Virus record (IMG/VR): IMGVR_UViG_3300007734_000725
Location: 1-53,221 of that record
Direction: 5' to 3' (one strand)
DNA: 53,221 nucleotides
Source of the DNA: a virus
Taxonomy: Duplodnaviria; Caudoviricetes
In this document: positions 3,243 to 17,788 of the stretch, in pieces
How positions within the stretch are numbered: position 1 is the first letter of the stretch
Layout of the letters: each line of letters begins with the position of its first letter
Translations under genes and position numbers: made by a program
Notes under the pieces: model-generated
Database searches by the model: none
Seen by the model: only the letters and a program-made list of their open reading frames with translations
What the model was told of the DNA's origin: nothing

Positions 3243-3417
3243 CTGGTTCTGCTGCTTTTTGCAGCTCGTCCATTTGAAGCATTGCTTGACCACGAATCTC
3301 CATGAAGAGATCCGCAACCTGCTCGTGAGGCAGCTTTGCCAATGCGGCCAACACCAGCTCAACGCCGGCGGGGACCATCTTGATTGTCAAGACAGGGGGT
3401 TTAACTTGCTCGGTCAT
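3220..3417 (-). CDS. hypothetical protein
   Basis: 65-aa ORF coupled to the SSB stop. Confidence 0.65.
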   Translation of the reverse strand: MTEQVKPPVLTIKMVPAGVELVLAALAKLPHEQVADLFMEIRGQAMLQMDELQKAAEPDGAEATN

Positions 3418-3956
3418 GATAGGAAGTCGTCCTCAACAGCAGTGAAATCGTCGGACGCATTAGATGCGCCAGCGCCGCCCAGTGGTTCGCCTTCGGCCAG
3501 CTTCTGCACGTTGTTCAAATAAAACTTGATGCCCTTGTTACCGTCGACGTTGTACGCCGCAGGCATGATGGACACACGACCGTAGCAACCACTGTACAAC
3601 TCTGACTTGTCGATGATGTCATTCATCTTCGCGTCAACAACGCTGGGTTTGTTGTACGTGTTGGCGTTGATGAAGTAGTGACCCTTGTACTCAGGGTACT
3701 TGTCGGTGTCACGCTCTGTATCACCGTCACGCAAAGGCGTTTTGAAACTGGCCAAGAACTTAGAACCCCAAATGGTTACGGCCTTGGCATCGGTCTTGAA
3801 CTTGTCAACAGCGCTGTTGATTTTGGTCAACGTCTCTTTGTCTTTCTTGTCAACCAAGATCATGATTGAATAAGAATTCTTTTCATCAGGTGTGAAAACG
3901 TTCTTGGTGAAAGAGAGGCGAACTTTGCCTGTGATAACTTTGTAGTCGGTAGTCAT
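3414..3956 (-). CDS. single-stranded DNA-binding protein, DUF2815 / T7 gp2.5-like
   Basis: TGKVRLSF, PLRDGD, YSGCYGRV, GNKGI..YLNNVQKL..GEPLGG; acidic C-terminal tail. Confidence 0.9.
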   Translation of the reverse strand: MTTDYKVITGKVRLSFTKNVFTPDEKNSYSIMILVDKKDKETLTKINSAVDKFKTDAKAVTIWGSKFLASFKTPLRDGDTERDTDKYPEYKGHYFINANTYNKPSVVDAKMNDIIDKSELYSGCYGRVSIMPAAYNVDGNKGIKFYLNNVQKLAEGEPLGGAGASNASDDFTAVEDDFLS

Positions 3957-3965
3957 GTTTGTCCT

Positions 3966-5138
3966 TTAGACTGGTTTAGAAAAATCATCTAGTGCGGATG
4001 CACGAGATGTAAGTGCTGGCCTCTTGTCCCCTTCGGGTACCAGCGTTGGTTTGCCTTCAGGCTTGGTGATCAGATCACCCAGCACGTCAGCAAATTTCTT
4101 TTTGCCGATCGCCTTCTCCATGGCAGTGATGCCAAGCAGGCTGCGCTCGTATGCAATCTCATCAGGGACCTCGGCTTCACGCAGCGCTTTGGCCACGGCG
4201 TCTTGGTCACTGTACTTGCGATTGCTCCTGCCCTCGACCAGCTTGTAGCCGGGGACCGTCGTACCTTTCTCGGCCTGCTTAAGTGCATGTGCCTTCAGGT
4301 CTGTGAACCAATCGATCACAGCGTCTGCACTGGGCAGCAGCTCGGCGATGCGGTCCACCGTTAATGTGTCCACCGCCGGTGGCAGCGAACTGAACTCTTG
4401 TCTGGCCACAGCAAGCGCGCCCTCTGCACGTGCAGGGCATGTGTACCTAGCTTTGCAAAAGTTGCTTGTGCAATGAGGCCCGGGGACAAACGTGCCCTCG
4501 CCATCCCAAGCCAGCTTGGCTGCCGGCACAACGGCCTCGTCTGCCCACTTAAGCAAGTCGGCTATCGAAAGCTCTTCGCTACTGTAGTTGCCAAGGCGTG
4601 GCTGGAGTACGGTCATGCGCACGCTTTGTATATCGTACAAGTCAGACAATTCGTTGTATGCACCGAGGCCATACAAACGCATTTGACTGTTGCTCTTCGC
4701 GTCAACGAAGATGCCCTTGCCATACTTCAAATCTAGCACCTCAACAAGCTCGTCAGTGATGATCACAAAGTCACCAGTGCCGAAACCTTCTGGCACCCAG
4801 CGGCTGAAGTCAAGCCTGCGCTCAACGTAGAACACCGGGTCCTTGCACCTAGCACGCGCCGCTTCAATGCGCTTGATGCAGTAGTCAACCGACTCGCGCA
4901 CGTAGTCGACAAGCGCTGGCGAATCAAAGTGCATCAGCTCGTTTGGCAAAGGCTCGACCTCGCGGCCAAGGTAGTGCAGCAGCTCCTGCTCAAACACTGC
5001 GTGGGCAAACGTACCTTCGCGGGCAAACTCGCTGCCCTCGTCTGGGAACGCTTCTTCCATGCGCGCGCTTGGCGTGCAGGTCATCCACTTCTCACTGCCC
5101 GATGCGGACAGTTTGGCGTGTGCTAGTTCGATGGTCAT
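3966..5138 (-). CDS. DUF2800 Cas4-like PD-(D/E)XK exonuclease
   Basis: HAKLSASGS..W..C, EGTFAH, GFGTGD, DLKYGKG, QMRLY, CxxxxC/CPAR cysteines, GYKLVEGRSNR. Confidence 0.9.
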   Translation of the reverse strand: MTIELAHAKLSASGSEKWMTCTPSARMEEAFPDEGSEFAREGTFAHAVFEQELLHYLGREVEPLPNELMHFDSPALVDYVRESVDYCIKRIEAARARCKDPVFYVERRLDFSRWVPEGFGTGDFVIITDELVEVLDLKYGKGIFVDAKSNSQMRLYGLGAYNELSDLYDIQSVRMTVLQPRLGNYSSEELSIADLLKWADEAVVPAAKLAWDGEGTFVPGPHCTSNFCKARYTCPARAEGALAVARQEFSSLPPAVDTLTVDRIAELLPSADAVIDWFTDLKAHALKQAEKGTTVPGYKLVEGRSNRKYSDQDAVAKALREAEVPDEIAYERSLLGITAMEKAIGKKKFADVLGDLITKPEGKPTLVPEGDKRPALTSRASALDDFSKPV

Positions 5139-5365: not shown

Positions 5366-6003
5366 TACTTTTTCTCCTCTATGTCATAAAACCAATCGTC
5401 TCCGGCAGCCCACTTGCGCGTGCCGTCAACGGTCCACAATCTTTGCGCTGCTTGAAAGTCTGGAAACTTTGTCTCAGCAGGAATCAAAGACTGGTCGTAC
5501 CACAGGCAACGGTTGTTTGGCTGTGCAGCAAACTGGCCGTTGTCTAGCTGGATAAAGTTAAAGCTCTTGTGCTCTTCAGCCGTCTCGGTGAACCCAGTGT
5601 CCAATGACATTTCATCAGCGCAGAAGTCGACAGTAAACATGTATCGACCAAAGTGCCACTGCTTGTCTTTGCCCAAGAACTTCACGCCCAAGTTACGCAA
5701 ACCAATCTTCTCAACGATTGTGAATCGATAGCCCATACAGTCCCACAATTGCAACGTGTCAATCGGCAAGTAAGGGCCCTGTGAATCCTCTGTGTGCCAA
5801 ACGTACGCATGCAGAGGCAGCTTGTCATACAGCGCGCCGTAGGCAGGCAGCAGCGACTCAATGCGGAACACTTGGCCACGCAAGGCTTTGAGGCTGACCC
5901 AGATGGCCGGCTCCAACTCGCCGTGACCTTTGTGGTCGTTGTACAAAAACTCGCGCTTCACAAAGCACTTGATCGGCGGCAGTGATGCAATGATGTAACT
6001 CAT
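5365..6003 (-). CDS. conserved phage hypothetical protein
   Basis: 212 aa; GALYDKLP, LQLWDC, EHKS, DNGQFAAQPNNR motifs recalled from aquatic phage proteins. Confidence 0.75.
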   Translation of the reverse strand: MSYIIASLPPIKCFVKREFLYNDHKGHGELEPAIWVSLKALRGQVFRIESLLPAYGALYDKLPLHAYVWHTEDSQGPYLPIDTLQLWDCMGYRFTIVEKIGLRNLGVKFLGKDKQWHFGRYMFTVDFCADEMSLDTGFTETAEEHKSFNFIQLDNGQFAAQPNNRCLWYDQSLIPAETKFPDFQAAQRLWTVDGTRKWAAGDDWFYDIEEKK

Positions 6004-6092
6004 TTGATGCTCCTCATAAAGACGTTACACCTAGCGCATTTGTAAATTGGTTGACCCTCGACGGGCTCCCAGCGATGTTGGCACTCGGTCAT
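6000..6092 (-). CDS. small zinc-ribbon-like protein (30 aa)
   Basis: Manual translation MTECQHRWEPVEGQPIYKCARCNVFMRSIK*; CxH...CxxC; GGAGG RBS; ATGA coupling. Confidence 0.5.
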   Translation of the reverse strand: MTECQHRWEPVEGQPIYKCARCNVFMRSIK

Positions 6093-6093
6093 G

Positions 6094-6441
6094 TTACGCG
6101 GCCTCCATGTTGCCCAGCAACTCAGCGTAACGCTCGGGCGGCACTGCGCTCAGGTTGGCACAGCCAACAGTCTCAAACAAATCTTTGAGTGGCTTGCCCT
6201 TTTCTTTGTAGGCCACCAGCTTGGCGCGCACTTCCTCAAGCGTGATGGTTGGCGCAGCAGGGGGTGCCTCTGGCTCAGCAGCAGCGGGGGTCGGCGCAGC
6301 CTTGGCTGCCTTTGGCTTCTTGGCCGGCGCATCTTCTTTGGCCACTGGCTCAGCGTCGCTTGCTTCTAAGAGCTTGGTCATAGCCCAAGCCAAGATCTGA
6401 ACGTGGTCTGCGTTCTGGGGTTGAATGGTAATCGTGATCAT
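6094..6441 (-). CDS. hypothetical protein with Pro/Ala-rich linker
   Basis: 115 aa; C-terminal TLEEVRAKL...LSAVPPERYAELL typical of genes upstream of DUF2800. Confidence 0.75.
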   Translation of the reverse strand: MITITIQPQNADHVQILAWAMTKLLEASDAEPVAKEDAPAKKPKAAKAAPTPAAAEPEAPPAAPTITLEEVRAKLVAYKEKGKPLKDLFETVGCANLSAVPPERYAELLGNMEAA

Positions 6442-6455
6442 TTAAAAACTCCTTG

Positions 6456-6677
6456 TTAAACGGGGGTGTTGGAATCGTCGGCCTTGTTGGCTTCAACAAG
6501 GTAAGCGGCCAAGCGCTTGATGCGATCAAGGTGGTATGCTGAAATTCGGCTTGCGTATTCAGCCGTGCTTTGCGATCTAAGTAATTCGCGACGGGCTTCT
6601 TCAAGCTCGCGTGCAGCAAGCTCTATTGCGGTAGGTGTCTTGAAGAAACTCAAGAACCCTTGGAAGATGTCATTCAT
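6456..6677 (-). CDS. hypothetical protein, first gene of the leftward replication operon
   Basis: 73-aa ORF with AAAGGA RBS. Confidence 0.7.
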   Translation of the reverse strand: MNDIFQGFLSFFKTPTAIELAARELEEARRELLRSQSTAEYASRISAYHLDRIKRLAAYLVEANKADDSNTPV

Positions 6678-6709
6678 GGTTTAGTCCTTTAGGTTGGTTT
6701 AGAGCGGTG

Positions 6710-6780
6710 ATGATAGCACTGCTTTCATTGCTTTTGTAAAAATAAATTTATTGCATGTTACATGTAAACAACGCTATCAT
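6710..6780. promoter_or_regulatory. divergent sigma70-like promoters
   Basis: Rightward TTGCAT(6751)-18 nt-TATCAT(6775); leftward extended -10 TGcTATCAT (6718-6710) with TTTACA/TTACAA upstream; AT-rich centre. Confidence 0.65.
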
Positions 6781-6788
6781 GGCAGCCC

Positions 6789-7010
6789 ATGACTACAAGT
6801 GAAATCATTAGCCGCTTTGGCGGCCCCGTTAACCTGTCCCACTACCTTGGCATACGCTCTCAAGCCGTGTCACTGTGGGCCAGCAAAGATCGCATACCCA
6901 TGGCACGCGTGCCTGAAATGGTACGCATCTCACGCCTGCTGCGACTTGGCCTGCGTGCTGAAGACATGAGGCCAGACATTGATTGGGACGCTCTCAAGGG
7001 GCGCCGGTGA
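6789..7010 (+). CDS. Cro/YdaS-like HTH transcriptional regulator
   Basis: FGGPVNLSHYLGIRSQAVSLW helix-turn-helix and C-terminal MRPDIDW. Confidence 0.85.
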   Translation: MTTSEIISRFGGPVNLSHYLGIRSQAVSLWASKDRIPMARVPEMVRISRLLRLGLRAEDMRPDIDWDALKGRR

Positions 7011-7201
7011 TAGAACTTAGATTAGCCTTGTCCCTTCAAGCGATGCGTGCGATTGCTGAAGGGGCGGAGCTGGTGTTTGACGTGGACGAAGAAGGTGTGC
7101 GCGTGTTCATCTCGTGTGACGACGAAGCGGTTAACGCTTTTAACACACAGGTGCAGCGTGCTCTCCTGCACATGTTGCCTATCAGCGGCATGCCAAATTA
7201 A
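7007..7201 (+). CDS. hypothetical protein
   Basis: GTG start overlapping the Cro-like stop (GTGA). Confidence 0.55.
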   Translation: MIELRLALSLQAMRAIAEGAELVFDVDEEGVRVFISCDDEAVNAFNTQVQRALLHMLPISGMPN

Positions 7202-7242
7202 ACCGATCCGGCCGGATGCCGGTGTTGTATTTAGGAGACGAT

Positions 7243-7440
7243 ATGAATTCTCGATCAGAGTATTTCAAAGATCTTATTGCCGACTGCATTCACGCGGTTG
7301 ATCAAATGGAAATCAACGAGGAGCACCAAGGCGTTGTGATTGCAGCGCTGATCCAGTCCGACAGCTACAACGGCCTGCGCAAAGCGATGCTGCAAGCGAT
7401 GAGCCCCACGTTTGTGATGCAGAGGGGTGATCGGTCATGA
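7243..7440 (+). CDS. hypothetical protein
   Basis: ATG at 7243 with AGGAG RBS; coupled to the primase start. Confidence 0.65.
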   Translation: MNSRSEYFKDLIADCIHAVDQMEINEEHQGVVIAALIQSDSYNGLRKAMLQAMSPTFVMQRGDRS

Positions 7441-9746
7441 CACGCCCTGAAGTACTGGCGCTCAGCCTAGACAACATACCCCAAGACCTGCAAGCACTAG
7501 ACCGCTGGGTCCTGTGGAAGAACGTGCAGCGCAGCAAGCCCAACGGCGAGAAGGTCTGGGCCAAGATGCCGCTCTCTGCTAAGGGCGGTGCGGGCAGCTC
7601 GGCAGATGCGACTACGTGGGTCTCGTTTGGTGCGGCCGTTGACGAATACCTGCTTGGCGATTACGACGGTATCGGCATCGTGCTTGGCGGCACCCTGCAC
7701 GGCATCGACTTAGACGACTGCCGAGACCCGGTCACGGGGGTGTTGTCGGATTTGGCACAAGAAACTCTTGACAGGGTCGAGGGTTACGCCGAAGTGTCGC
7801 CGTCCGGCACTGGCCTGAAAATCTTCACACAGACAAACCTCGACGGCAGTCGCACGAAAAAAGAGGCCGGCGTTGAGCTGTACAAAGACGGCCGGTATTT
7901 CACAGTGACTGGCCATGCAATCAACGGACACGCGTCTCTGCCGGTGCTGCCGCAAGACCTAGGCTGGATGATTGCAAAGGTGTGGGACGAACAGATGGGC
8001 GAGGCAGGCAGCGAGGACGCATTCGCCAACCTGAAGTCTACGCTCGATGGGTGGGAGCTTGACCGCGTGGTCGACGAAGTGCTCGTACACCTTGACCCTG
8101 ACGTGGGCTACGGCGAGTGGCTTAAGGTCGGTGCTGCACTGCACCATCAGAGCGGCGGCGATCCGGAGTGGCTCGACGCATGGGACAACTGGTCGGCTGG
8201 CTCTGGCAAGTGGATCGACGGCTACTGCGCCGAGAAGTGGGAGAGCTTTAGTACGGGGCGCGCGACTGGACGTGGCGCCGTGACGCTGGCGTCTCTGCTG
8301 CACATGACCAAAGACAAGCGCGATGTGGCCAAGCTGGACAAGCGCGATGTGGCCATGGCTGCGGTGATGGACATGGTCGAGAAGTGCACAGAAATAAGGG
8401 ACTTGCAAGAGAAGATCGCTGCTGGCATTGCACACACTGCAGAAGTGTCGGACGTGGAGCGCGAACAGATCGCTGTTGCAATCCAGTTAAAGGCCAAGGA
8501 CCTAGGCACGAAGCTGCCTTTGTCGACTGTACGGGGGTGGGTTCGGGCGCGCGTGAAGGTGACCGGCGGCTTCGTTAACCTGAACGACGACGGCTACCCA
8601 CTGTGCACACTGGACAACTTCTACGTGCTCATGGACAAGCTGGGTTATGGGGTCCGATACAACGTGATCAAGAAAGCAATTGAGCTGCTCATACCGGGGA
8701 GCGCATTCACACGTGACAACAGGGACAACGCGGCCATATCGCACGTCCTGTCTGAGTGCGAGAAGGTCCGCATGTCGACCAAGCACGTCTCTCAATTTCT
8801 GATCACTCTTGCAGACAAGAACCAATACAACCCAGTGGCCACGTGGATCGATAGCTTGGGGTGGGACGGAGTGTCGCGGCTTGAAGACTTCTATGCCACT
8901 GTACGGGGGCCAGCCAGCGGGGCGCAGATAAAGAAAAGCCGCATGCGCAAGTGGCTCATCCAAGCGGTGGCTGCAGCGTTTAGCCCTGATGGCATTGCAG
9001 GGCAGGGCATCTTGACTTTCGTTGGACCGCAGAACATTGGCAAGACAACTTGGTTCCAGAGGCTGGCGCCGGCCTCACTTGACGCGATCCTGACAGGCCA
9101 CACTTTGGACATGCGATCGAAGGACTCGATCTTTATCGCCCTGTCCTACTGGATTGTGGAGCTGGGTGAGCTTGACGCGACGTTCTCAAAGTCTGAGATC
9201 AGCGCGCTGAAGTCATTCACGACACAGGCCATGGACAAGCTGCGCCGGCCATACGCTGCAACCGAATCGAACTTTGGGCGCCGCACCGTGTTTGGTGGAA
9301 CGGTCAACGAATCCCAGTATTTAAACGACCCGACTGGCAATCGCAGGTTCTGGTCGATCGAGGTGGACGGGTTTGATTTGGACAGTGGGATCGACATGCA
9401 GCAGCTTTGGGCTGAGATCAAAACGCTGTGGGAAAAGGGTGAGAGCTGGGTCTTGAACATGCGGGAGATGGGCGAGTTGAACATCCATAACGAAGAATTT
9501 ACGGTGGTCGATCCGATCGAGGAGCGCTTGGCGGCCGCCTTTAACTGGTCGGAATTTGGGCTTGGAAACGATTTGTGGGTGACGGCAACCGATGCGCTGA
9601 TGAAGATTGGTGTGCGAGATCCGTCAAAAGGGCAGACGATTACGGCCGGCAGGGCATTGAAAAAGTTGAACGGAGGTCAGCGCAAAAAGACAAATGGCCG
9701 TGTGGTTTTCTTGGTTCCTGCCGATGAACCAGAATTTACAGGGTAA
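7437..9746 (+). CDS. primase-polymerase (AEP) / PriCT-2 / VirE(VapE)-like SF3 helicase
   Basis: GIDLDDC and EVSPSGTGLK (AEP); YGEWLKVGAALH...WDNWS (PriCT-2); Walker A GPQNIGKTT, WIVELGEL, LNDPTGNRRFW (VirE-like). Confidence 0.9.
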   Translation: MTRPEVLALSLDNIPQDLQALDRWVLWKNVQRSKPNGEKVWAKMPLSAKGGAGSSADATTWVSFGAAVDEYLLGDYDGIGIVLGGTLHGIDLDDCRDPVTGVLSDLAQETLDRVEGYAEVSPSGTGLKIFTQTNLDGSRTKKEAGVELYKDGRYFTVTGHAINGHASLPVLPQDLGWMIAKVWDEQMGEAGSEDAFANLKSTLDGWELDRVVDEVLVHLDPDVGYGEWLKVGAALHHQSGGDPEWLDAWDNWSAGSGKWIDGYCAEKWESFSTGRATGRGAVTLASLLHMTKDKRDVAKLDKRDVAMAAVMDMVEKCTEIRDLQEKIAAGIAHTAEVSDVEREQIAVAIQLKAKDLGTKLPLSTVRGWVRARVKVTGGFVNLNDDGYPLCTLDNFYVLMDKLGYGVRYNVIKKAIELLIPGSAFTRDNRDNAAISHVLSECEKVRMSTKHVSQFLITLADKNQYNPVATWIDSLGWDGVSRLEDFYATVRGPASGAQIKKSRMRKWLIQAVAAAFSPDGIAGQGILTFVGPQNIGKTTWFQRLAPASLDAILTGHTLDMRSKDSIFIALSYWIVELGELDATFSKSEISALKSFTTQAMDKLRRPYAATESNFGRRTVFGGTVNESQYLNDPTGNRRFWSIEVDGFDLDSGIDMQQLWAEIKTLWEKGESWVLNMREMGELNIHNEEFTVVDPIEERLAAAFNWSEFGLGNDLWVTATDALMKIGVRDPSKGQTITAGRALKKLNGGQRKKTNGRVVFLVPADEPEFTG

Positions 9747-9956
9747 TAGGGGCCTATTACCCTGCCTATTACCCTGCCCTATTACCCTGACTTAAGTCTT
9801 TGAAATCATTAAAGAATATAGTAGTTAGGGTAATAAGGGTAATAGAAAAAGATATACATATTTTAGGAAGATGATACTTGACAGTTGTGGCAAATGTTAG
9901 TGTTTGCCAGAGGTATATATAGGGAATCCATTGCCCTTTAATGCCCTATTACCCTG
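9739..9956. repeat. iteron-like array (TATTACCCT x7, both orientations) around an AT-rich spacer; candidate replication origin
   Basis: CCTATTACCCTG at 9753, 9765, 9778, 9945; reverse copies at 9739-9750, 9827-9835, 9836-9845. Confidence 0.75.
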
Positions 9957-9970
9957 CACTGGAAAAAGAG

Positions 9971-10237
9971 ATGTTGGAAAAGAAAATCGAGGAGAGGCTT
10001 AGGAAAAAAGCAAAGGAGGCTGGTGGGCTGGCGGCCAAGTGGGTGTCGCCGTCCATGAGCGGGGTGCCGGACCGGATTGTTTTTCTGCCGGGGGGCAAGA
10101 TTATTTTTGTGGAACTAAAGCGGCCGGGCGAAAAGCCAACGCCGCTTCAGGACCGGATCATTGAAATGCTGAGGGGGCTGGGCGCCGATGTGCGCGTGGT
10201 CGACTCGATGGAGAAGGTAGATGAAATTTTCCGCTAG
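9971..10237 (+). CDS. VRR-NUC domain nuclease
   Basis: LEKKIE...GG...KWVSP..SGVPDR...FVELK.PG.KPTPLQ. Confidence 0.9.
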   Translation: MLEKKIEERLRKKAKEAGGLAAKWVSPSMSGVPDRIVFLPGGKIIFVELKRPGEKPTPLQDRIIEMLRGLGADVRVVDSMEKVDEIFR

Positions 10238-11534
10238 ACCGGCGCAAGCCGTGACGATTCAGAGAATGCTGGATGAGACTTACCAGTTGATTGCGCTTCG
10301 CATGGGGGCTGGAAAGACGGTGGCGACCTTGACCGCTGTCCAGAGGCTGGGTTTGAAGACCCTTGTGGTGGCGCCTAAAAGGGTCGCAGAGCTCGTGTGG
10401 CACACGGAAGCGAGTAAGTGGGACCACCTATCAGGCCTACGTGTATCGAAGGTCCTAGGCCCCATTGCGGCCCGGCTAGAGGCATTGATGGCTGACGCGG
10501 ACGTCTACGTGATCAACCGGGAGAACTTTCGGTGGTTGGTCGATCTGGTCAAAGAGAGCAAACAGCCTTGGCCCTTTGAGTGCGTGGTGATCGATGAGAA
10601 CAGAGGGTTTAAGGACCGGGCCAGCAAAGCGTGGCAGGCGCTGAAATCGGTTCGCAGCCAAATCCAAAAGCTGTACATCCTTACAGGTACGCCAGATCCC
10701 AACGGCGATCTGTTGGATCTGTGGGCCCAGATCAGCGTCATGGACAACGGCAAGAGACTGGGCACCGGCATCACCAAGTACCGGGACAAGTGGTACGTGC
10801 CAGACAAACGCAATGGCCAGACGATCTACAGCTGGAGGCTCAAGAAAGGCGCAAGGCAGGAGATCCAAGATGCGGTAAGGGATGTGATGGTCAGCGTGGA
10901 CAGCGGCGTTGAGATGCCAAAGCGGATCGACAACGTGGTCCAAGTGACGTTTGACATGAAGAGGTATCGGGAGATGGAGGCAACCATGGTGAGCGGGGCC
11001 GTGATGGCGGTCAATGCTGCAGTGCTGGCAGGCAAGCTGGGCCAGATGGCCAACGGCGCGGTGTACGACGACAACCGGTTTGTGCACCCGATACATGATG
11101 CCAAGCTGGATGCACTCGAAGAGATCTTGGATCAAGGTGAGCCGGTGCTTTGTTTTACGGCGTACGTGCACGACATGGGCCGGATCAAGTCAAGGTTTCC
11201 AGACGCGGTTCAGTTTGACGGAGAGCCATCCTTAGCCCGCTGGCAGGCCGGAGAGATCAAGTTGATGGTGATGCACCCAGCAAGCGGCGGCCACGGCGTG
11301 GACGGCCTTCAGGTGGGCGGCAATGTGGCTGTTTGGTTTGGCCTGCCTTTTAGCTTGGACCTGTACGAGCAGGCCACCGCAAGGCTTCACAGGCCCGGCC
11401 AAAAGAATGAGGTTGTTGTGCACCACCTTGTGGCGGTGGGCACAATCGACGAGAGAATCATGGCGGTGCTTGCAAGCAAGGGCAACATGCAGCAAGCATT
11501 GATTGACGCAGTCAACGAAGCAAAGGGGAAGTAA
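10221..11534 (+). CDS. SNF2-related helicase
   Basis: MGAGKT, VVIDE, LTGTP, HPASGGHGVD, QATARLHRPGQ. Confidence 0.9.
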   Translation: MKFSARPAQAVTIQRMLDETYQLIALRMGAGKTVATLTAVQRLGLKTLVVAPKRVAELVWHTEASKWDHLSGLRVSKVLGPIAARLEALMADADVYVINRENFRWLVDLVKESKQPWPFECVVIDENRGFKDRASKAWQALKSVRSQIQKLYILTGTPDPNGDLLDLWAQISVMDNGKRLGTGITKYRDKWYVPDKRNGQTIYSWRLKKGARQEIQDAVRDVMVSVDSGVEMPKRIDNVVQVTFDMKRYREMEATMVSGAVMAVNAAVLAGKLGQMANGAVYDDNRFVHPIHDAKLDALEEILDQGEPVLCFTAYVHDMGRIKSRFPDAVQFDGEPSLARWQAGEIKLMVMHPASGGHGVDGLQVGGNVAVWFGLPFSLDLYEQATARLHRPGQKNEVVVHHLVAVGTIDERIMAVLASKGNMQQALIDAVNEAKGK

Positions 11535-11992
11535 TGTTCAAAGAGCGATTAACCAAAGCGCAAGTGTCCAAGAACCTGAGCGAGGTTCCTGTCAATGAGA
11601 TTGGCGACATCGATTTGGTGAGGGCTTGTGGGATGGCCGGCGCAAACAATCCGCTGGGGCTTGCGATCTGGCGGTGGCGGTATGCAGGAGACACACGTGA
11701 AGTGTTCCATATCGCAGAGACCTTGGTTGAGATGGGCAACTCTCCTTTGGTGGTCTACAACGTGATGCACCACCTGTCCAAAGACGTGTGCCCTGTGTGC
11801 CATGGCAGGGGTTACAGCGTGATCAAAGGCGCGCCGGTCCTAAGCGATGAGATTTGTCTGGACTGCAAGGGCGCAGGACGGAAAGAACTAAAAGGCGAAG
11901 CAGAAACGAAATTGGCCGCCGCAATCACCCGCATGGAGCAGGAGATCGCAGCGGCCATCATGAAGAAGCTAGCTAGACAGATTGAGTTCTGA
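11534..11992 (+). CDS. Zn-finger protein, possible lambda-Q-like late antiterminator
   Basis: CPVCHGRG...CLDCKGAG double CxxCxGxG; last gene of the rightward early operon. Confidence 0.5.
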   Translation: MFKERLTKAQVSKNLSEVPVNEIGDIDLVRACGMAGANNPLGLAIWRWRYAGDTREVFHIAETLVEMGNSPLVVYNVMHHLSKDVCPVCHGRGYSVIKGAPVLSDEICLDCKGAGRKELKGEAETKLAAAITRMEQEIAAAIMKKLARQIEF

Positions 11993-12368
11993 TTACTTGG
12001 TTGCAGCAAGGGCAAACGTCCTTGTCTTCACGGCGTTTGATAGCGCGGTGAACTGCGGACTGGTTAACGCCAATAGCTTTGGCTGCGGCGTAGACCGACA
12101 TGCTGTCTTTCTCAACGAGATCAACAGCCATCATGGTCCGTGACTTAGTGGCAGGGTCAAGGTCTTTCTCCTTGGCCCAAACAGCTACCGCAGTCTCGGG
12201 CCATTCATCAGGCCTAGTTGTGTAAGCTGAAGCAGAGATCTGGCCAGCGTTGTCCCAAGCAACAAGGTATTTGGTGAGCGGGTTCTCTGACGTTTCTCGA
12301 AGTTTCTTTTTAAGATTTTCTGACCAGCCGTTGATTTGTAAAAACTCGTCAAGAGTTTGATGTTTCAT
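11973..12368 (-). CDS. HTH DNA-binding protein with C-terminal CPCC
   Basis: AVDLVEKDSMSVYAAAKAIGVNQSAVHRAIKR; AAGGA RBS before the ATG at 12368. Confidence 0.7.
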   Translation of the reverse strand: MKHQTLDEFLQINGWSENLKKKLRETSENPLTKYLVAWDNAGQISASAYTTRPDEWPETAVAVWAKEKDLDPATKSRTMMAVDLVEKDSMSVYAAAKAIGVNQSAVHRAIKRREDKDVCPCCNQVIRTQSV

Positions 12369-12443
12369 TTGGATTTCCTTTGTATGTATTTGGCCCAGCA
12401 AGTAGCACATAGCCACTTGATTCCTGAGATTTCACAGCCGCCT

Positions 12444-12635
12444 TCAGTCAGCCGGTTCTTTTGACATGTTGTGCACTTTCGCCAAGCGGTCATCTTTGTA
12501 TTCTTTCAAAAGTTTTTTAGCCCGGTTCTTAATCCGTTGCCGAGCCCGGGAAGTCTCGGCCGATCCATCGTAGTCAGGCATGGCAAGCAAGGCCTCAAGG
12601 GCCTTGACAAGGTCATCAATCAAAACGGCCTCCAT
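12444..12635 (-). CDS. hypothetical protein
   Basis: 63-aa ORF; start may be the TTG near 12623. Confidence 0.55.
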   Translation of the reverse strand: MEAVLIDDLVKALEALLAMPDYDGSAETSRARQRIKNRAKKLLKEYKDDRLAKVHNMSKEPAD

Positions 12636-12700
12636 ACCATGAGGTCCATGAAAAGGACGACAAGCCCGAGGGCGTAAAGGGTTGCGTATGCGTAGTTCAT
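12620..12700 (-). CDS. small membrane peptide (26 aa)
   Basis: Manual translation MNYAYATLYALGLVVLFMDLMVWRPF*; ATGA coupling. Confidence 0.45.
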   Translation of the reverse strand: MNYAYATLYALGLVVLFMDLMVWRPF

Positions 12701-13050
12701 GGCTTTACCTTTCCCAATAAAAGCTGTTCTTCGTAAGCAAGCGAAACGATCTGATCCATTTTTGCGTCGATGGCAGTTTCAGTTGCAGCAGACACCAAGA
12801 AGTTGTATCCGTAGTTCTGCTTGATCTCCCGGGGCACACCGGGTATGCGAAACACGGTGCTGAATTCACGAGCCCGATTGCACAGGCCGTTGTTGTACAG
12901 GTCGTAATAGCAATTCACGGCCTTGCGAAACTTCTCAAGGTATTTGTTGGTCACCTTGTTGTCAGGCACCTCACCAAAACTTGGCAGCAGTTTTTCAAGC
13001 GCATCTGCCTCGGCCTGATACAGGCCTTTGCTTTCCCAGTACGTACTCAT
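12697..13050 (-). CDS. conserved phage hypothetical protein
   Basis: MSTYWESKGLYQ...YYDLYNNGLCN; AGGAG RBS. Confidence 0.7.
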   Translation of the reverse strand: MSTYWESKGLYQAEADALEKLLPSFGEVPDNKVTNKYLEKFRKAVNCYYDLYNNGLCNRAREFSTVFRIPGVPREIKQNYGYNFLVSAATETAIDAKMDQIVSLAYEEQLLLGKVKP

Positions 13051-13253
13051 GCGAGCTCCTTCTGTTTCAATTTCATTTGGCGATCGCGCAAGGCGTCGAT
13101 CTCCGCCCAAAGCCTGACCGCGTAGTCAGGGTTGATGTCTTCACCCCAGATCTTCAGGGTGTCGTGGCAGTCGAGCAAAGCCCGGCGGCAAGTGTAGAAG
13201 TCGTAGTCCTTTACCTTGTTGGTAAAGACGGCGTAATAGTTGTTGTAGTTCAT
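13047..13253 (-). CDS. hypothetical protein
   Basis: 68-aa ORF coupled on both sides. Confidence 0.65.
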   Translation of the reverse strand: MNYNNYYAVFTNKVKDYDFYTCRRALLDCHDTLKIWGEDINPDYAVRLWAEIDALRDRQMKLKQKELA

Positions 13254-13588
13254 GCAACTTCCTTCTGAGCATAAAACTCAAAAACTCTTTCTTTGATCTC
13301 AGCCCAGCGCGCAACGGCGCGGGCCTGTTGAGCAGCAACGTTCTTGTCGGTGCAGCGAACCTTCTTGCCAATCTCAAGGACCTTGAAGTAATCGGCAAAG
13401 ATGGCAGTCGTCACAATGCCGGGCTGGTTTACAAAACCAATGCTGGCGTAGGTGGCCAAGTCACCAGAAGAATTCTTTGATGTGGTGATCTCAAGCTGAG
13501 CAGTGCGGCCGTTCAAAGGGAAGGTCTCTTTGGTTTCAGCCCTCCAGCTTTTGTTGCCCCAGCGCTCACGGCGAATAAGTGTTTCCAT
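13250..13588 (-). CDS. hypothetical protein
   Basis: ATG at 13588 with GGAG RBS. Confidence 0.7.
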   Translation of the reverse strand: METLIRRERWGNKSWRAETKETFPLNGRTAQLEITTSKNSSGDLATYASIGFVNQPGIVTTAIFADYFKVLEIGKKVRCTDKNVAAQQARAVARWAEIKERVFEFYAQKEVA

Positions 13589-13678
13589 GGTCAATCTCCA
13601 AAAGGTTCTGACATCCGGTCAGATCGGTTGTGCAATCGCACTGCATAGAGCACCCAGCGGGTGCCCTACACGCTACGA

Positions 13679-14635
13679 TCAGGCAGGCATCAAAGCAGCC
13701 AGAGCGCGCTGCTTGAGGTCAGCGCCAGCGCCCCACTGAGAAGCCACAAAGCGGTTCTCGTCAGAGCGAGCACGGACGTGGTGGTCAGCGTACTCTGTGA
13801 ACGCGTTGAGCAAGCCCCAACGTGTACCCATCACGCCGTCCATCTGAGCGCCCATGCCGGCGCCGTTGAACAACGACAGGACTTTCTTGAAGCCAGCAGC
13901 TTCGCGAACTTTCTCGCCGTTGCCAAAGACGTTGGCGGTGATCTCGCCGGCCTCTTCTTCGAGCAACTCGATGTTGGCCAACTTGACAACGTTGTGGCGG
14001 AAGGCGTCCCAAGCAGCAGTGTTCAGGCCCATGAATTCCTTGACGGATTCTGGATCAAACACAGAGCGGTGAGTAACCTTGATTGTTGACTTCTCAGCCA
14101 GCGCCATGGCCAGTGTGTTTTTGCACACAGTGCGCACGGTGGTACGACGTACCTCAGTGGCCAACGATCCGTCAGCGCTTGTGCTGATCAAGATGTAGCC
14201 GCCGATCTTGTCTGCTACCGAAGTAGGAGCAGCTTCGCCGATCTTGGCTGTTGCCCAGAAGCGCTTGCCACCGTAGATGGTTCCTGCTGCAGACAATTCC
14301 AAGCCACCAGCGCGGGCAATGTCGCGGAAGAATTCCACAACATCACCGGGCTGAACAACTTGGTAGCGATTGGACACAACACCGAGCGGCGCCTTTGTGT
14401 CAGAGCGGAACAGAACGTGTTGTTCTGGCAACTCTAACTGTGAGCCGTCGAAGTCAGTGTTGTAGCGAACGATACCGCGCTTGATCTTCCAGTCCATGCC
14501 AGCGGCTACGCGCCAAGCATCGAGGCTAGTGCCATCTTCGAGTGCTTGACCCAAACCGTGCCATGGTGTTCCGTCCGAAGCGAGGTATGCAAATTCGACG
14601 CGGCCATCAGCGTGAGTGGTGAGTTCGTGAGACAT
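13679..14635 (-). CDS. DUF932 / TIGR03299 phage-plasmid-like protein
   Basis: PWHGLG, AGMDW, LGVVSNRYQVVQP, AGTIYGGKRFW, STSADGS, VRTVCKNTL, TRWGLLNAFTEYADH. Confidence 0.9.
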   Translation of the reverse strand: MSHELTTHADGRVEFAYLASDGTPWHGLGQALEDGTSLDAWRVAAGMDWKIKRGIVRYNTDFDGSQLELPEQHVLFRSDTKAPLGVVSNRYQVVQPGDVVEFFRDIARAGGLELSAAGTIYGGKRFWATAKIGEAAPTSVADKIGGYILISTSADGSLATEVRRTTVRTVCKNTLAMALAEKSTIKVTHRSVFDPESVKEFMGLNTAAWDAFRHNVVKLANIELLEEEAGEITANVFGNGEKVREAAGFKKVLSLFNGAGMGAQMDGVMGTRWGLLNAFTEYADHHVRARSDENRFVASQWGAGADLKQRALAALMPA

Positions 14636-14726
14636 GATTAAATTTCCTTTAGGTTGGTTTAGATACTGGCGTTAGCCAGAGTGCGGATCGCACTGCACAG
14701 GGCACGTCATGCCCTGCACGCTGTGA

Positions 14727-14939
14727 TCAGCCACGCATCTCGCGGAATATCAAAGCCTTGGCCTTGTTGAGGTATTGCCGGGCAGACTCAACGTCGCCAA
14801 AGGCCATCATCTCTTGAGCGTCAGACATCAAACCAGCGACCACCATCAAAGGGCCAGCGGTTTTGTAAGTGATCGAATCTTCAACGCTGTCGATGAAGTC
14901 GTCGATCATGCAGCCGTACATTCTTATTTCGTTGTTCAT
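14727..14939 (-). CDS. hypothetical protein
   Basis: MNNEIRMYGC...MSDAQEMM...ARQYLNKAK; AAGGA RBS. Confidence 0.7.
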   Translation of the reverse strand: MNNEIRMYGCMIDDFIDSVEDSITYKTAGPLMVVAGLMSDAQEMMAFGDVESARQYLNKAKALIFREMRG

Positions 14940-14940
14940 T

Positions 14941-15129
14941 TCAATTCCTTTCAAGGCAAGCAGTGTAGGTAGCGGGGCCGTTGGTGAAGCCGCAGTTGTC
15001 GTTGTATTCACGACGAACGATTTTGATCGCGTTGCTGCGGCTGGTAGCACTGACAGGCGTCGTGTAGGGGTTGCAATTCCAAGATATAAACTTGGGCATC
15101 ACAGTCACAAGGTAGGTGCGAAAGATCAT
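14941..15129 (-). CDS. hypothetical protein
   Basis: 62-aa ORF, GGAGG RBS, coupled. Confidence 0.55.
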   Translation of the reverse strand: MIFRTYLVTVMPKFISWNCNPYTTPVSATSRSNAIKIVRREYNDNCGFTNGPATYTACLERN

Positions 15130-15308
15130 ATCGCCTCCACTCTTGTGTAACCTTCTTCTTCCAGAATGCGACGGAAGGTCATAGCCAAACCACTTTCGAT
15201 TTTGAAAGTCTCGAAAGCACCAGTCACAGGGCTTACAGCCCGGAGCTCTTTTGGATAGTACGGAAAGCTCATTGAACCGTAGGTTTCATAAAACTCAGCG
15301 CGTGTCAT
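15126..15308 (-). CDS. hypothetical protein
   Basis: MTRAEFYETYGS...; GGAGG RBS. Confidence 0.6.
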   Translation of the reverse strand: MTRAEFYETYGSMSFPYYPKELRAVSPVTGAFETFKIESGLAMTFRRILEEEGYTRVEAI

Positions 15309-15309
15309 T

Positions 15310-15480
15310 TCAAACCTCCTCAGTAAAAGACAATGCGGTTTCGATCGCCTCTGCGCGATCTGTGGTGAAGTAGTCCGCCTCTGCAAGGTAGACGCCTTCG
15401 CGATAAAACTTCACAACGAATTCTTCGTATTCGAATTCGTAGAACACGGTGGCCGAAGGGGCCCTAAAAACAACTCTCAT
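15310..15480 (-). CDS. hypothetical protein
   Basis: MRVVFRAP...EYEEFVVKFY...ADYFTTDRAEAIETA; GAGGAG RBS. Confidence 0.65.
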   Translation of the reverse strand: MRVVFRAPSATVFYEFEYEEFVVKFYREGVYLAEADYFTTDRAEAIETALSFTEEV

Positions 15481-15490
15481 GATGCACTCC

Positions 15491-15685
15491 TCAATCAAAC
15501 TCGCACCCCACTTCGATGGGTGCGTTGTTAAGCGCTTCGGCGTAAAGCCGGGCGTCGTATTCAGCGTCAGGTCCGTAAAAACTTTCAATGATGGGCGAAA
15601 TATTCGAACCAGCAATTGATTTGTAAACGAACCAGCAAGGCAGGCGATCGTCGTCGCCCGGGCAGTCATCGACTTTGTATTCCAT
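15491..15685 (-). CDS. hypothetical protein
   Basis: MEYKVDDCPGDD...; fills the operon. Confidence 0.55.
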   Translation of the reverse strand: MEYKVDDCPGDDDRLPCWFVYKSIAGSNISPIIESFYGPDAEYDARLYAEALNNAPIEVGCEFD

Positions 15686-15696
15686 GACTGCCACCC

Positions 15697-15984
15697 TTAT
15701 GCTTTGCGAGCAGTGACTTTGACACTGATCACTTTGCTGACTCTTTCGACTTGGCTGACCAAGTCACCTAGCAGCTCTTCGACCTTGCGTGGGTCGTAGC
15801 TGGTGCGGTCCTGCTTAACCACAACAGCGCTGAACACCTCGCCGTCGTAGCTATCCAAACCACCTTCTTTCAAACGCAATTTGATTGCGTCAGCTTCCTT
15901 GGTCAAGCGGCTGATGTCAGCCAGCAAGATACCCAAGGTATCGATGTCGTCGGCGGTAATCGCCTGAATGATTGCTTTTGCCAT
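15697..15984 (-). CDS. hypothetical phage protein
   Basis: MAKAIIQ...IDTLGILLADISRLTKEADAIK; GGAG RBS. Confidence 0.7.
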   Translation of the reverse strand: MAKAIIQAITADDIDTLGILLADISRLTKEADAIKLRLKEGGLDSYDGEVFSAVVVKQDRTSYDPRKVEELLGDLVSQVERVSKVISVKVTARKA

Positions 15985-16072
15985 GATGATCTCCAAAGGC
16001 ACACCAGCATCCGGCTGGATCGGAGTGTTAATCACACTGCACTACACCCTGTCACGGTGCAGCACGCTGGGA

Positions 16073-16168
16073 TTAAGAGTTGAGCCACTCTTCAAAAGAT
16101 TTGATGGGCAAGCCGAGCGACTTGGCACAGGCCACATAGATTTGATAACGCGATTGCAAAGTTTCCAT
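16073..16168 (-). CDS. small hypothetical protein (31 aa)
   Basis: Manual translation METLQSRYQIYVACAKSLGLPIKSFEEWLNS*; GGAG RBS. Confidence 0.6.
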   Translation of the reverse strand: METLQSRYQIYVACAKSLGLPIKSFEEWLNS

Positions 16169-16170
16169 AA

Positions 16171-16380
16171 TTAACTCCAAACAGAATAAGGTTCGCCACC
16201 GCTGAGCGCGATGTCGTACGGTGAAAAGACTGGGATAAACCGACGAGCATTGCAGGTCAAGTTGACCGCGTTGTCGTAGAAGTCTTCGCGCAGGGTGTCG
16301 AGGCGTTTACCACCCAGCTCAACCAGCGGCATGTACAACTTGACAAGCTGGACAACGATCGGTTCGTTGCGGTATCTCAT
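16171..16380 (-). CDS. hypothetical protein
   Basis: 69-aa ORF, AAGGA RBS. Confidence 0.6.
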   Translation of the reverse strand: MRYRNEPIVVQLVKLYMPLVELGGKRLDTLREDFYDNAVNLTCNARRFIPVFSPYDIALSGGEPYSVWS

Positions 16381-16391
16381 AGTAATTTCCT

Positions 16392-16571
16392 TTATGCGGG
16401 AGCAAACATTGCACGACCTTCGCGCATAAACACGCGAAGAGCCACGGCTTCTCTGTTGTCCAACTCATCGTTGTCCAACATCTCTCTCATCACGATCACG
16501 GTGTCGAGCAAGCTCATACCGTAGATTTCGCGTCTGTCGTTGATGATTTGGATTGCAGTAGTGATGTTCAT
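16392..16571 (-). CDS. hypothetical protein (59 aa)
   Basis: Manual translation MNITTAIQIINDRREIYGMSLLDTV...FMREGRAMFAPA*; AGGAG RBS. Confidence 0.6.
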   Translation of the reverse strand: MNITTAIQIINDRREIYGMSLLDTVIVMREMLDNDELDNREAVALRVFMREGRAMFAPA

Positions 16572-16583
16572 AGTGATCTCCTG

Positions 16584-16778
16584 TTAAACCTGAGCAGCAA
16601 CATAAGCGTTGCTGTATTGAATTTCAAAGCCAAGGGCCTTGATGTCAGCAACTTGCTGAGCGTTAAAAGTTTTGGCGCCAATCAACTTGGCGAGCCGCAA
16701 AGCAGTGGCGTTGTTTGGATCAGGGTAGATCTTGGGAACGCCGTAAACAATTTTGATGGTAAGAAAAACAACTGGCAT
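16584..16778 (-). CDS. hypothetical phage protein
   Basis: VYGVPKIYP...A.LIGAKTF....IKALGFEI; GGAG RBS. Confidence 0.7.
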   Translation of the reverse strand: MPVVFLTIKIVYGVPKIYPDPNNATALRLAKLIGAKTFNAQQVADIKALGFEIQYSNAYVAAQV

Positions 16779-16794
16779 ATCAATCTCCAAAAAG

Positions 16795-17058
16795 TTAGAC
16801 CAAATCAAGGTCCTTGATGTCTTGGCCCGAAGCCAAACGACCGTTAGCAGCAATGCTGTACTCAATCTGAGCAAGCGTTGGCTTGTAGCAGTCACCGTAG
16901 TCTGTCCACTGGCCACTCATACGCTTGCCTTCGAACCAAACAACGTAAATGTTGAAGCCCCGAATTGCAGCTACGGTGTAGACCTGAGCGTCAGCGTGTG
17001 GGCCGCGCACAATCAATTGACCAAGGTAAAGCTGCTTGAGAGTTAATCTACTTGCCAT
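16795..17058 (-). CDS. hypothetical protein, first gene of the leftward early cluster
   Basis: 87-aa ORF, AGGAG RBS. Confidence 0.7.
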   Translation of the reverse strand: MASRLTLKQLYLGQLIVRGPHADAQVYTVAAIRGFNIYVVWFEGKRMSGQWTDYGDCYKPTLAQIEYSIAANGRLASGQDIKDLDLV

Positions 17059-17313
17059 TTAAAACTCCTAAAAATATCAAGCTGTCACGGCCGCCTGAAT
17101 ACGCCGCCAATGCCAAGCACGCTTGGCATTAGTTGTGGGCGGGGGATTACCAACGTGCCCGATTAAGGACCTTTACGTACCGGTTTAGCTCACCGCCTCA
17201 AGACTCTTGCCCTCGTGGACTCTGTCTAACCAGAACATCTCTCGGTCGTCTGGAACGTATCCCCTAGTCGGTTGGGTGGGGAAGCAAACAAAGAACAATC
17301 AACCGACAACTCA

Positions 17314-17341
17314 AATGTAGCACAGTGACAGGCACTGTCAA
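17314..17341 (-). promoter_or_regulatory. leftward early sigma70-like promoter with overlapping palindrome
   Basis: TTGACA-16 nt-TACATT with extended TG; TGACAG-gca-CTGTCA inverted repeat over the -35/spacer. Confidence 0.7.
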
Positions 17342-17427
17342 CTACTTTTTTAAATGTTGCGCAAATACAACTAAAATAATTTAAAAGCGTTGTTTTTATG
17401 CAACTAAAAATAGTTGAGTTTTCCCAC

Positions 17428-17456
17428 TTGACCCGAAAATCTGGTTGGTATATTCT
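17428..17456 (+). promoter_or_regulatory. late promoter 1
   Basis: TTGACC-17 nt-TATTCT. Confidence 0.65.
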
Positions 17457-17501
17457 CTGCGTGCGCAGGTGTGCCCGCTCAAAGGCAAACAAACCCCTAA
17501 G

Positions 17502-17528
17502 AAAAGCCGTCAATTCATGCGGCTTTTT
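17502..17528 (+). terminator. leader intrinsic terminator upstream of the first late gene
   Basis: AAAAGCCGT-caattcat-GCGGCTTTTT. Confidence 0.65.
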
Positions 17529-17545
17529 GCACATTTGGAGCCCTC

Positions 17546-17788
17546 ATGGCCAAGACAATTACTATCGAAATGGCTGATGACGGCACGGTCATGGTTTCAA
17601 GCAGCGAAGGCGGTGAGCCTTATATGTGCGAGAGCATCGATGAGTGCCGTCAATACGTGGACAATATGCTGGCTGAAGAAGCCGGCGAGAGCCCACAAGA
17701 ACAAACCATGGAAGGCCCCGAGGAGTACGGCCAGATGTGGAATGAAGAAGCGGCCAGCCGCAAACCCCAACCGGGCCTGATGGCCTAA
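17546..17788 (+). CDS. hypothetical acidic protein
   Basis: 80-aa ORF, GGAG RBS. Confidence 0.7.
   Translation: MAKTITIEMADDGTVMVSSSEGGEPYMCESIDECRQYVDNMLAEEAGESPQEQTMEGPEEYGQMWNEEAASRKPQPGLMA

Follow-up and report, generated by a model that had tools for sequence, protein, structure and literature searches.

A covarying 20-nucleotide leader element, possibly a minimal pseudoknot, ahead of early gene blocks in an uncultured freshwater phage and its relatives

The early regions of phages are mosaics of small uncharacterized genes, and how newly acquired genes come to be correctly expressed is poorly understood. Stabilizing stem-loops of the ompA type are small hairpins located at or near the 5′ end of a messenger RNA (mRNA), before the ribosome-binding site (RBS), and need no conserved loop or flank. 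The pseudoknots of T4 gene 32 and Escherichia coli rpsO are single-copy, each autoregulating one gene via its own product, while the lambda boxB loop is purine-rich, GNRA-like and read by an arginine-rich peptide. Here, we describe a 20-nucleotide (nt) element, designated type A, three copies of which lie in the IMG/VR virus record IMGVR_UViG_3300007734_000725, an uncultured freshwater phage; the whole record was analysed and is called the window below (53,221 bp, estimated 95% complete, 52.8% G+C). The promoter-early stem-loop (PeSL) cassettes of T4-type phages are described as a strong sigma-70-like promoter combined with a terminator stem-loop (PMC2839356; see also PMC4122927). Start-associated sequences, a short conserved repeat of uncharacterized function just before the start codons of a subset of genes, are described for Cluster K mycobacteriophages (PMC3203893), and a pseudoknot before the RBS is mentioned for T4 gene 32 (PMC10690425).

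Type A is a real, conserved, structured leader element, without a match in Rfam. Its copies in the window, with their scores against a covariance model, and the sequences that follow them are:

Copy 1, positions 7203–7222, + strand: CCG at 7203–7205, linker at 7206–7207, first stem strand at 7208–7212, loop at 7213–7217 (CGG at 7213–7215) and second stem strand at 7218–7222; 44.4 bits.
Downstream of copy 1, 7223–7245, + strand: U-rich spacer, GGAG at 7234–7237 and the ATG (7243) of orf65.
Copy 2, 13608–13627, − strand: stem CTGAC/GTCAG; 36.7 bits.
Downstream of copy 2, 13586–13607, − strand: spacer, GGAG at 13599–13596 and the ATG (13588) of orf112.
Copy 3, 16004–16023, − strand: stem CCAGC/GCTGG; 40.1 bits.
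Downstream of copy 3, 15982–16003, − strand: spacer, GGAG at 15994–15991 and the ATG (15984) of orf95.

The three 20-mers (13627–13608 and 16023–16004 when read along the − strand) are exactly as given in a preliminary description of this DNA, which also placed them before the RBS of early genes, 20, 19 and 19 nt from stem to ATG; the distances and the GGAG sites are confirmed. Each copy heads a multi-gene early block. Copy 1 begins one base past the TAA stop of orf72 (7199–7201), and orf65 is the first gene of a block continuing with a primase-helicase, a VRR-NUC gene, an SNF2 helicase and orf152 (to 11992); orf112 heads a block reaching a helix-turn-helix (HTH) protein at 11973, and orf95 a block ending with DUF932 (13679). 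The pattern CCGAT-N5-CGGAT has exactly three matches in the window, five when one mismatch is allowed (against a mean of 1.64 in 100 shuffles), and none when reversed. When every position of both strands was scored with filters off, the covariance model separated the three copies (36.7–44.4 bits) from the next best of 12 matches at E ≤ 10 (11.4 bits), the window scores being partly by construction as the model was built from 35 copies that include these three. Rfam 15 gave no match at gathering score over the whole window and none at E ≤ 5 over 13540–17560; over 6400–7300 only a chance snoRNA match (E 3.6) was found, away from copy 1. A match to a described Rfam family, which according to the preliminary description would remove the novelty of the element, was not found.

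Conservation was assessed in 80 loci around relatives of the primase (41–96% identity), 80 around relatives of the DUF932 protein and 80 around a divergent DUF932. These loci carry L numbers (e.g. L088, L142), and as many of them overlap, distinct sequence contexts were counted. To avoid circularity, every CCGNN-N5-CGGNN-N5 match was taken without requiring pairing. Among the 154 distinct contexts followed by a Shine–Dalgarno sequence (SD) and a start codon, 84 had all five stem pairs and four had 4/5, the remainder being background; without an SD, only 15 of 1453 contexts had 5/5 pairs. The perfect pairing with compensatory changes noted earlier for the window copies thus extends to the relatives, where the 84 fully paired contexts use 16 stem versions. 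In an alignment of 35 sequences (pre-selected for pairing), two-sided changes occur at all five stem pairs, in 44 cells altogether; four of the 39 unique matches (two in L020, one each in L032 and L056) were left out owing to a coding or tandem-repeat context. The L020 matches belong to two near-identical 36-nt stretches, 156 bp apart, in a repetitive and probably coding region (21932–22123, − strand), and are chance matches to the loose motif.

The search of related phage loci proposed earlier found the element conserved, the covariance model giving 52 matches at E < 0.005 in the 80 primase loci; weaker matches (E 0.03–0.5) include variants with a six-base loop or a 6-bp stem. Five relatives that are 92–100% complete hold two to three copies each, every one of them in the early region, next to primase and DUF932; their structural modules have none. 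The leader persists while the protein identity of neighbouring genes falls from 90% to approximately 46–60%.

Flank and loop had been called invariant. This holds within the present genome; in relatives, only the CCG of the flank and the CGG of the loop stay fixed, and the two bases after each vary. The flank linker can be AT, AG, AA, TG, GG, CA or CG, and the 84 loops are CGGAT (52), CGGTT (24), CGGTC (5), CGGCT (2) and CGGCC (1). These counts bear on the analogy with CsrA/RsmA, in which one GGA of the hairpin loop and a second one in the SD would form the binding site. The three window copies fit, all having GGA in the loop and GGAG 14–20 nt downstream; with GGA in only 52 of the 84 loops and absent from the other 32, a five-base loop where six bases are usual, and a fixed CCG flank that CsrA binding leaves unexplained, the analogy is not supported and a CsrA/RsmA site has hardly any chance of being the explanation.

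A feature missed by the preliminary description is that its two ‘invariant’ parts are mutually complementary: the CCG flank can pair with the CGG triplet of the loop, and the order flank–stem–loop–stem is that of an H-type pseudoknot (a-b-a′-b′). The predicted 20-nt fold would comprise a first stem (S1) of 3 bp, a first loop (L1) of 2 nt, a second stem (S2) of 5 bp (rarely 6 bp) and a last loop (L3) of 2–3 nt. In the 84 contexts above, CCG and CGG are present by selection, and the pairing was therefore tested on 595 distinct pre-SD hairpins with a 5-bp stem and a 5-nt loop. At the predicted offset (the triplet two bases 5′ of the stem against loop bases 1–3), 59 of these were complementary, against 4–22 at other offsets; CCG:CGG makes up 45 of the 59. 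Double changes that keep the pairing were found in three lineages: in L142, L143 and L174, the orthologous site that follows DUF932 shows GCG paired with CGC; L026 has CGG with CCG before the orf65 homologue, where its relative L024 combines an identical stem with CCG and CGG; and TCG occurs with CGA before the first late-operon gene in L091/L092, a genome that also holds a standard copy. On these comparisons, the flank–loop helix likely forms.

Two other pairings were considered and rejected. Extension of the stem by the flank appears in the minimum free energy fold of copies 1 and 2, gains only approximately 2 kcal/mol and is not conserved. Pairing of loop or flank with the SD, the start codon or the 3′ end of 16S rRNA was looked for by eye only and showed nothing consistent, CC with GG being unspecific.

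The same constancy of the two triplets can be read otherwise. A phage or host RNA-binding protein acting in trans could recognize the CCG:CGG helix or the loop. Bound at −20 to −40, it would either block the 30S subunit or recruit it, and so repress or activate translation of the first cistron of each block, as other phage translational operators do. That CCG and CGG are fixed while stems vary freely in the same genome, that the spacing to SD and start codon is tight and that each genome has just two to three copies, all at heads of early blocks, would suit such an operator. However, mutual pairing already explains all invariant bases, and the unpaired ones vary, both in the flank linker and in the loop (AT, TT, TC, CT, CC). 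Moreover, no RNA-binding family was found among the early open reading frames (ORFs) tested, L091 combines a standard and a variant triplet in one genome, and the same intergenic slot holds a different leader (type B, below) or a plain GC-rich tetraloop hairpin in relatives. A protein operator is therefore possible, albeit doubtful.

The position of the element points to the RNA level. In relatives, it always lies on the sense strand of the downstream gene, 6–14 nt from stem to SD and 15–25 nt from stem to start codon (19–20 nt in 47 of 81), so that the tight placement before the RBS seen in the window is general. The downstream genes fall into 22 groups of unrelated proteins. Compared with L088 and L099, identity is 89–94% upstream of the element, 100% inside it and 56–64% after it; this drop marks a mosaic joint. 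The co-regulation of three particular genes proposed at first is not supported by these results, as the element heads 22 gene groups and sits at mosaic junctions.

As CCG and CGG also form an inverted repeat (CCG-N7-CGG) in duplex DNA and mark these junctions, a protein-binding site or a recombination or replication signal acting at the DNA level might be envisaged. Duplex binding, though, leaves unexplained the second, interleaved inverted repeat that covaries freely, and the constant strand, the spacing tied to the SD and the G-U pairs of the accompanying helices, which exist on the sense strand only, all speak against it: we consider a DNA site very improbable.

Promoters were also compared with the position of the element. 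A sigma-70-like promoter with its −10 box ending 7–14 nt before CCG is found in nine of 83 instances (shuffles: mean 1.5, maximum 4), and the predicted transcript start falls 0–7 nt 5′ of the element in the same nine. All nine belong to one sub-lineage, in which the upstream hairpins are separated from the element by an inserted promoter that carries an operator-like palindrome. With a promoter directly upstream, the transcript would begin with the element itself, which hence acts downstream of promoters, i.e. in RNA. In L118–L124, L126, L127 and L130, approximately 50–100 nt past the DUF932 stop, the promoter spacer carries the palindrome TGACA-N5-TGTCA, which is probably the operator of a phage repressor. 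In the window, this promoter/palindrome design has a single exact match, at the head of the leftward early operon:

Sigma-70-like promoter, 17314–17341, − strand: TTGACA, 16 nt, TACATT; palindrome TGACAGGCACTGTCA.

This promoter likely starts the leftward early operon, which carries the type B leader and copies 3 and 2.

The nine promoter-linked instances also bear on two readings in which the hairpin would act on transcription. The first is a weak intrinsic terminator or attenuator closing the upstream block, with a hairpin followed by a U-rich tract. A terminator scan does score copy 1 as terminator-like (five G-C pairs, then TGTTGTATTT), and in many relatives this slot is occupied by a plain GC-rich hairpin, which in some of them comes with a T-run. 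Yet a 5-bp stem is short, the tails of copy-2 type are not U-rich (AACC..., GACTCAGG, GGATCAGG), terminators are not marked by conservation of a 5′ flank and loop, and in the nine instances the element lies downstream of a promoter; termination is accordingly highly unlikely to be its role.

The second is a processive antitermination site, nut- or put-like, whose nascent RNA would modify RNA polymerase to pass terminators in the early blocks. The geometry of a 5-bp stem with a pentaloop, the location of copy 1 after a Cro-like gene and before replication genes, much as nutR, and the place of the element just after the promoter in one sub-lineage would agree with it. The boxB/nut analogy of the preliminary description is nevertheless not supported. 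No single-stranded, boxA-like block is shared 5′ of the hairpin: copy 1 lacks the upstream bases that are conserved at the other two copies, and there these bases covary as the strands of helices. Nor is the loop purine-rich, and a nut site would not be expected to keep a constant distance to the SD. No convincing downstream terminators appeared in a simple scan, no N-like protein was found with Pfam and PHROG among approximately 30 early ORFs, and the translations show no obvious arginine-rich N-terminus, although small novel proteins could escape such a search. Antitermination is thus, in our view, a quite improbable function.

Two of the window copies do not stand alone. Unlike copy 1, copies 2 and 3 follow approximately 50 nt of conserved, covarying hairpins:

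Module upstream of copy 2, 13628–13678, − strand: after the DUF932 stop (13681–13679), AGCGTG at 13674–13669, hairpin H1 at 13667–13647 and a small helix at 13641–13630.
Module upstream of copy 3, 16024–16072, − strand: after the stop at 16075–16073, CAGCGTGCTG, a covarying hairpin and AGTGT-loop-ACACT, on the same plan as at copy 2.

The general layout is AGCGTG, a GC-rich hairpin of 7–10 bp with G-U, then either a small AGTGY-loop-RCACT helix or a long-range helix. At copy 2, H1 has 9 bp with sense-strand G-U pairing, and the 115-nt fold of the region has z = −2.7; H1 is without a T-run at both copies. A sigma-70 or sigma-54 promoter inside this H1/H2 module was rejected, since neither visual inspection nor the scan gave acceptable −10/−35 or −24/−12 elements.

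The first gene of the leftward early operon is preceded by another leader, type B, which ends 9 nt before the SD:

Type B leader, 17064–17139, − strand: before orf87 (ATG at 17058), hairpin at 17130–17109, flank CGGC at 17106–17103, loop GCCG at 17091–17088 and stem 17097–17093/17082–17078.

Type B consists of a hairpin with a CGTG loop, then GGCGGYG...CAGGCGRCCG...GCYTG, its flank CGGY pairing with RCCG of the loop. It is unrelated to type A yet has the same topology, has no match in Rfam, and is more abundant than type A in the same phages, with up to four copies within 4 kb in relatives (which include L018, L020, L104, L114 and L203). With a search pattern that left both variable flank–loop positions free, the variable pair was U-A in 31, C-G in 20 and U-G in one of 52 distinct copies, and in none was it unpaired; a coding match in L033 and matches within 32–44 nt of a locus end were left out. 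One stem pair is G-U in 39 of the 52, which works on the sense strand only. In the window, type B closes an unusually long, GC-rich untranslated leader of approximately 250 nt (17058–17313, − strand) between the early promoter and the first gene, without an Rfam match at E ≤ 5.

Relatives differ in what fills the slot after DUF932: type A together with the hairpins 5′ of it, type B, or a plain GC-rich tetraloop hairpin. The last, GGGGGC-TTCG-GCCCCC, follows the DUF932 stop in L091, L106, L107, L112, L141, L151 and others, 2–9 nt before the next SD; a T-run accompanies it in some relatives and is absent in others, and it often stands directly 5′ of type B units. The window also has a rightward promoter-like site (TTGACC...TATATT/TATTCT) followed by a hairpin AGCCG-(10-nt loop)-CGGCT (17428–17545, + strand). 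The first late-operon gene (ATG at 17546) has its SD 11 nt past this hairpin. In L091/L092, the loop on this AGCCG/CGGCT stem has five bases and, with the flank, matches the type A design through the TCG with CGA pair.

RNA evidence came from three metatranscriptome runs holding relatives 88–95% alike, in the form of Logan contigs, two of the runs (X18 and X19) being from one study; coverage gaps and depth differences were not used. One X18 contig with the copy-2 leader ends at 13628 and continues into adaptor, which places a fragment end 1–2 nt 5′ of CCG. Among the X19 contigs, one starts with adaptor at 7214, within the loop of copy 1, and another ends at 13673, just past the DUF932 stop. 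In these contig data, no site passed the filter for many molecules beginning or ending there. The contig ends give a weak hint that 5′ ends of RNA can lie at the element. An N4-like promoter formed by a DNA hairpin was set aside: no RNA polymerase gene was recognized among the large ORFs of the window, and the sole RNA end lies 5′ of the hairpin, not 3′.

Taken together, we favour, with moderate confidence, type A as a structural, cis-acting leader of early mRNAs that would act on their 5′ end, on translation initiation or on both, in the manner of an insulator; we infer this effect from the sequence data. It is most likely a minimal pseudoknot acting in cis that doubles as a cassette joint. 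Located 6–14 nt ahead of the SD, the element would form the 5′ edge of the translation-initiation region, and would move as a portable junction module heading multi-gene early blocks (in the window, the replication block, the block ending with DUF932 and the block after DUF932). The mRNA of a block would start at or just before the element, through processing of a polycistronic early RNA or, in one sub-lineage, from the promoter directly upstream instead. Once folded, the element would bury this 5′ end and shield the RBS from pairing with upstream RNA, so that the message would be stabilized and expression of the following gene would become independent of context. The strictness of the CCG:CGG sequence leaves room for a specific reader, either a protein or the ribosome.

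A wider proposal would unite types A and B in a new class of minimal pseudoknot block leaders. The early RNA would be cut 1–2 nt 5′ of them by a host or phage nuclease or by the RNA itself, and each block would receive its own mRNA with the 5′ end tucked into the pseudoknot, the leader serving as a signal for processing, capping and insulation and as a joint for cassette swaps. We think this wider proposal unlikely.

Several observations weigh against the cis-acting leader. Concerning the fold, the flank–loop helix rests on three invariant pairs and three lineages with double changes, and the complementary cases other than CCG:CGG number 14, against approximately nine expected by chance; as these are not clearly above chance, the helix is likely, not proven. 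A doubtful copy in L017 has a G/A mismatch between flank and loop (together with two G-U pairs in the stem and a different downstream gene). With 2 nt to cross a 3-bp stem, L3 is about as short as such a fold allows, and when the short leaders are folded as single sequences their stability does not exceed that of shuffles (z approx. +0.3). Moreover, S1 is almost always CCG:CGG and not one of varied G-C triplets, which points to a sequence-specific reader rather than to stability alone. In type B, copies within one genome share their pair state, leaving few independent events; the covariation follows genome lineage and may reflect only these few. Concerning the transcripts, the scan found no recognizable promoter upstream of the three window copies, the RNA support consists of contigs from one study and not of stranded raw reads, and adaptor-tagged ends also occur at approximately six unrelated places (including 6687, 14690, 14977, 15493 and 15956). 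Finally, the X19 end inside the copy 1 loop may be an artefact caused by a palindrome, and one X19 contig reads straight through copy 3.

The gene layout around the leaders is as follows:

Leftward replication set: family A polymerase (1130–3154), Enc34-type single-stranded DNA-binding protein (3414–3956) and DUF2800 nuclease (3966–5138).
Rightward operon: Cro-like HTH protein (6789–7010), orf72, orf65, PriCT-2/VapE primase-helicase (7437–9746), VRR-NUC and SNF2 helicase.
Leftward early operon: from approximately 17.3 kb down to 11973, small uncharacterized genes and the DUF932 protein (13679–14635).
Rightward late operon: terminase (19006), SU10-like portal (20881), major head protein (26453), tail fibres and a 2019-amino-acid ORF.

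The last of these (44766–50825, + strand) has no sequence match in Pfam, PHROG or the PDB. Its nearest Atlas clusters, with scores (0.75–0.89) that make them leads only, bear domains of the ART-PolyVal and LPD22 types, suggestive of a polyvalent protein that is injected. Cultured relatives were sought by megablast of 6000–17000 against 50,697 phage records, without a match, and by tblastn with the primase, which gave only partial matches below 50% identity and no close cultured relative. A scan of species genomes returned four contigs of metagenome-assembled genomes, with no host assignment.

A self-contained 20-nt leader able to precede any gene would account for the continued function of exchanged cassettes. 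Few natural pseudoknots would be smaller, and synthetic operons could use it as a compact insulator part; should a protein read it, it would define a small early regulon in an abundant group of uncultured freshwater phages. The pseudoknot design and its recurrence in type B are the part worth testing.

Among described systems, the start-associated sequences of Cluster K mycobacteriophages reportedly overlap the RBS and are sequence motifs, whereas type A is a covarying structure 5′ of the RBS. The lambda nut site shares with it a 5-bp stem, a five-base loop and a location in early transcripts, one copy here following a Cro-like gene; the lack of a boxA-like block, of a purine-rich loop and of any N-like protein found, together with the fixed SD distance, sets type A apart. 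CsrA/RsmE sites resemble the window copies in that both the hairpin loop and the SD hold GGA, but the GGA of the SD (GGAG 6–14 nt past the stem) is trivially true of any GGAG-type RBS, GGA is not conserved in the loops (52/84), the loop is a pentaloop, and the conserved CCG flank finds no explanation.

Closer likenesses exist with three systems. Like the T4 gene 32 and rpsO leaders, type A would be an H-type pseudoknot located before the SD, with an unstructured U/A-rich stretch on its 3′ side; it differs in heading 22 unrelated gene groups and in being much smaller (20 nt). With the ompA-type stem-loops, it shares a small hairpin before the RBS and a freely varying stem; its 5′-terminal position is putative for most copies, and it differs in that the 5′ triplet can pair into the loop and would bury the end itself. 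PeSL cassettes are likewise short repeated regulatory units just before small uncharacterized early genes and at points of gene replacement between related phages (PMC2839356). However, a sigma-70-like promoter accompanies only nine of the 83 instances of type A and none of the window copies, and the genomes hold two to three copies each, against about 50 PeSL units; here, the hairpin comes after the promoter, in the transcript, with a fixed flank/loop pair.

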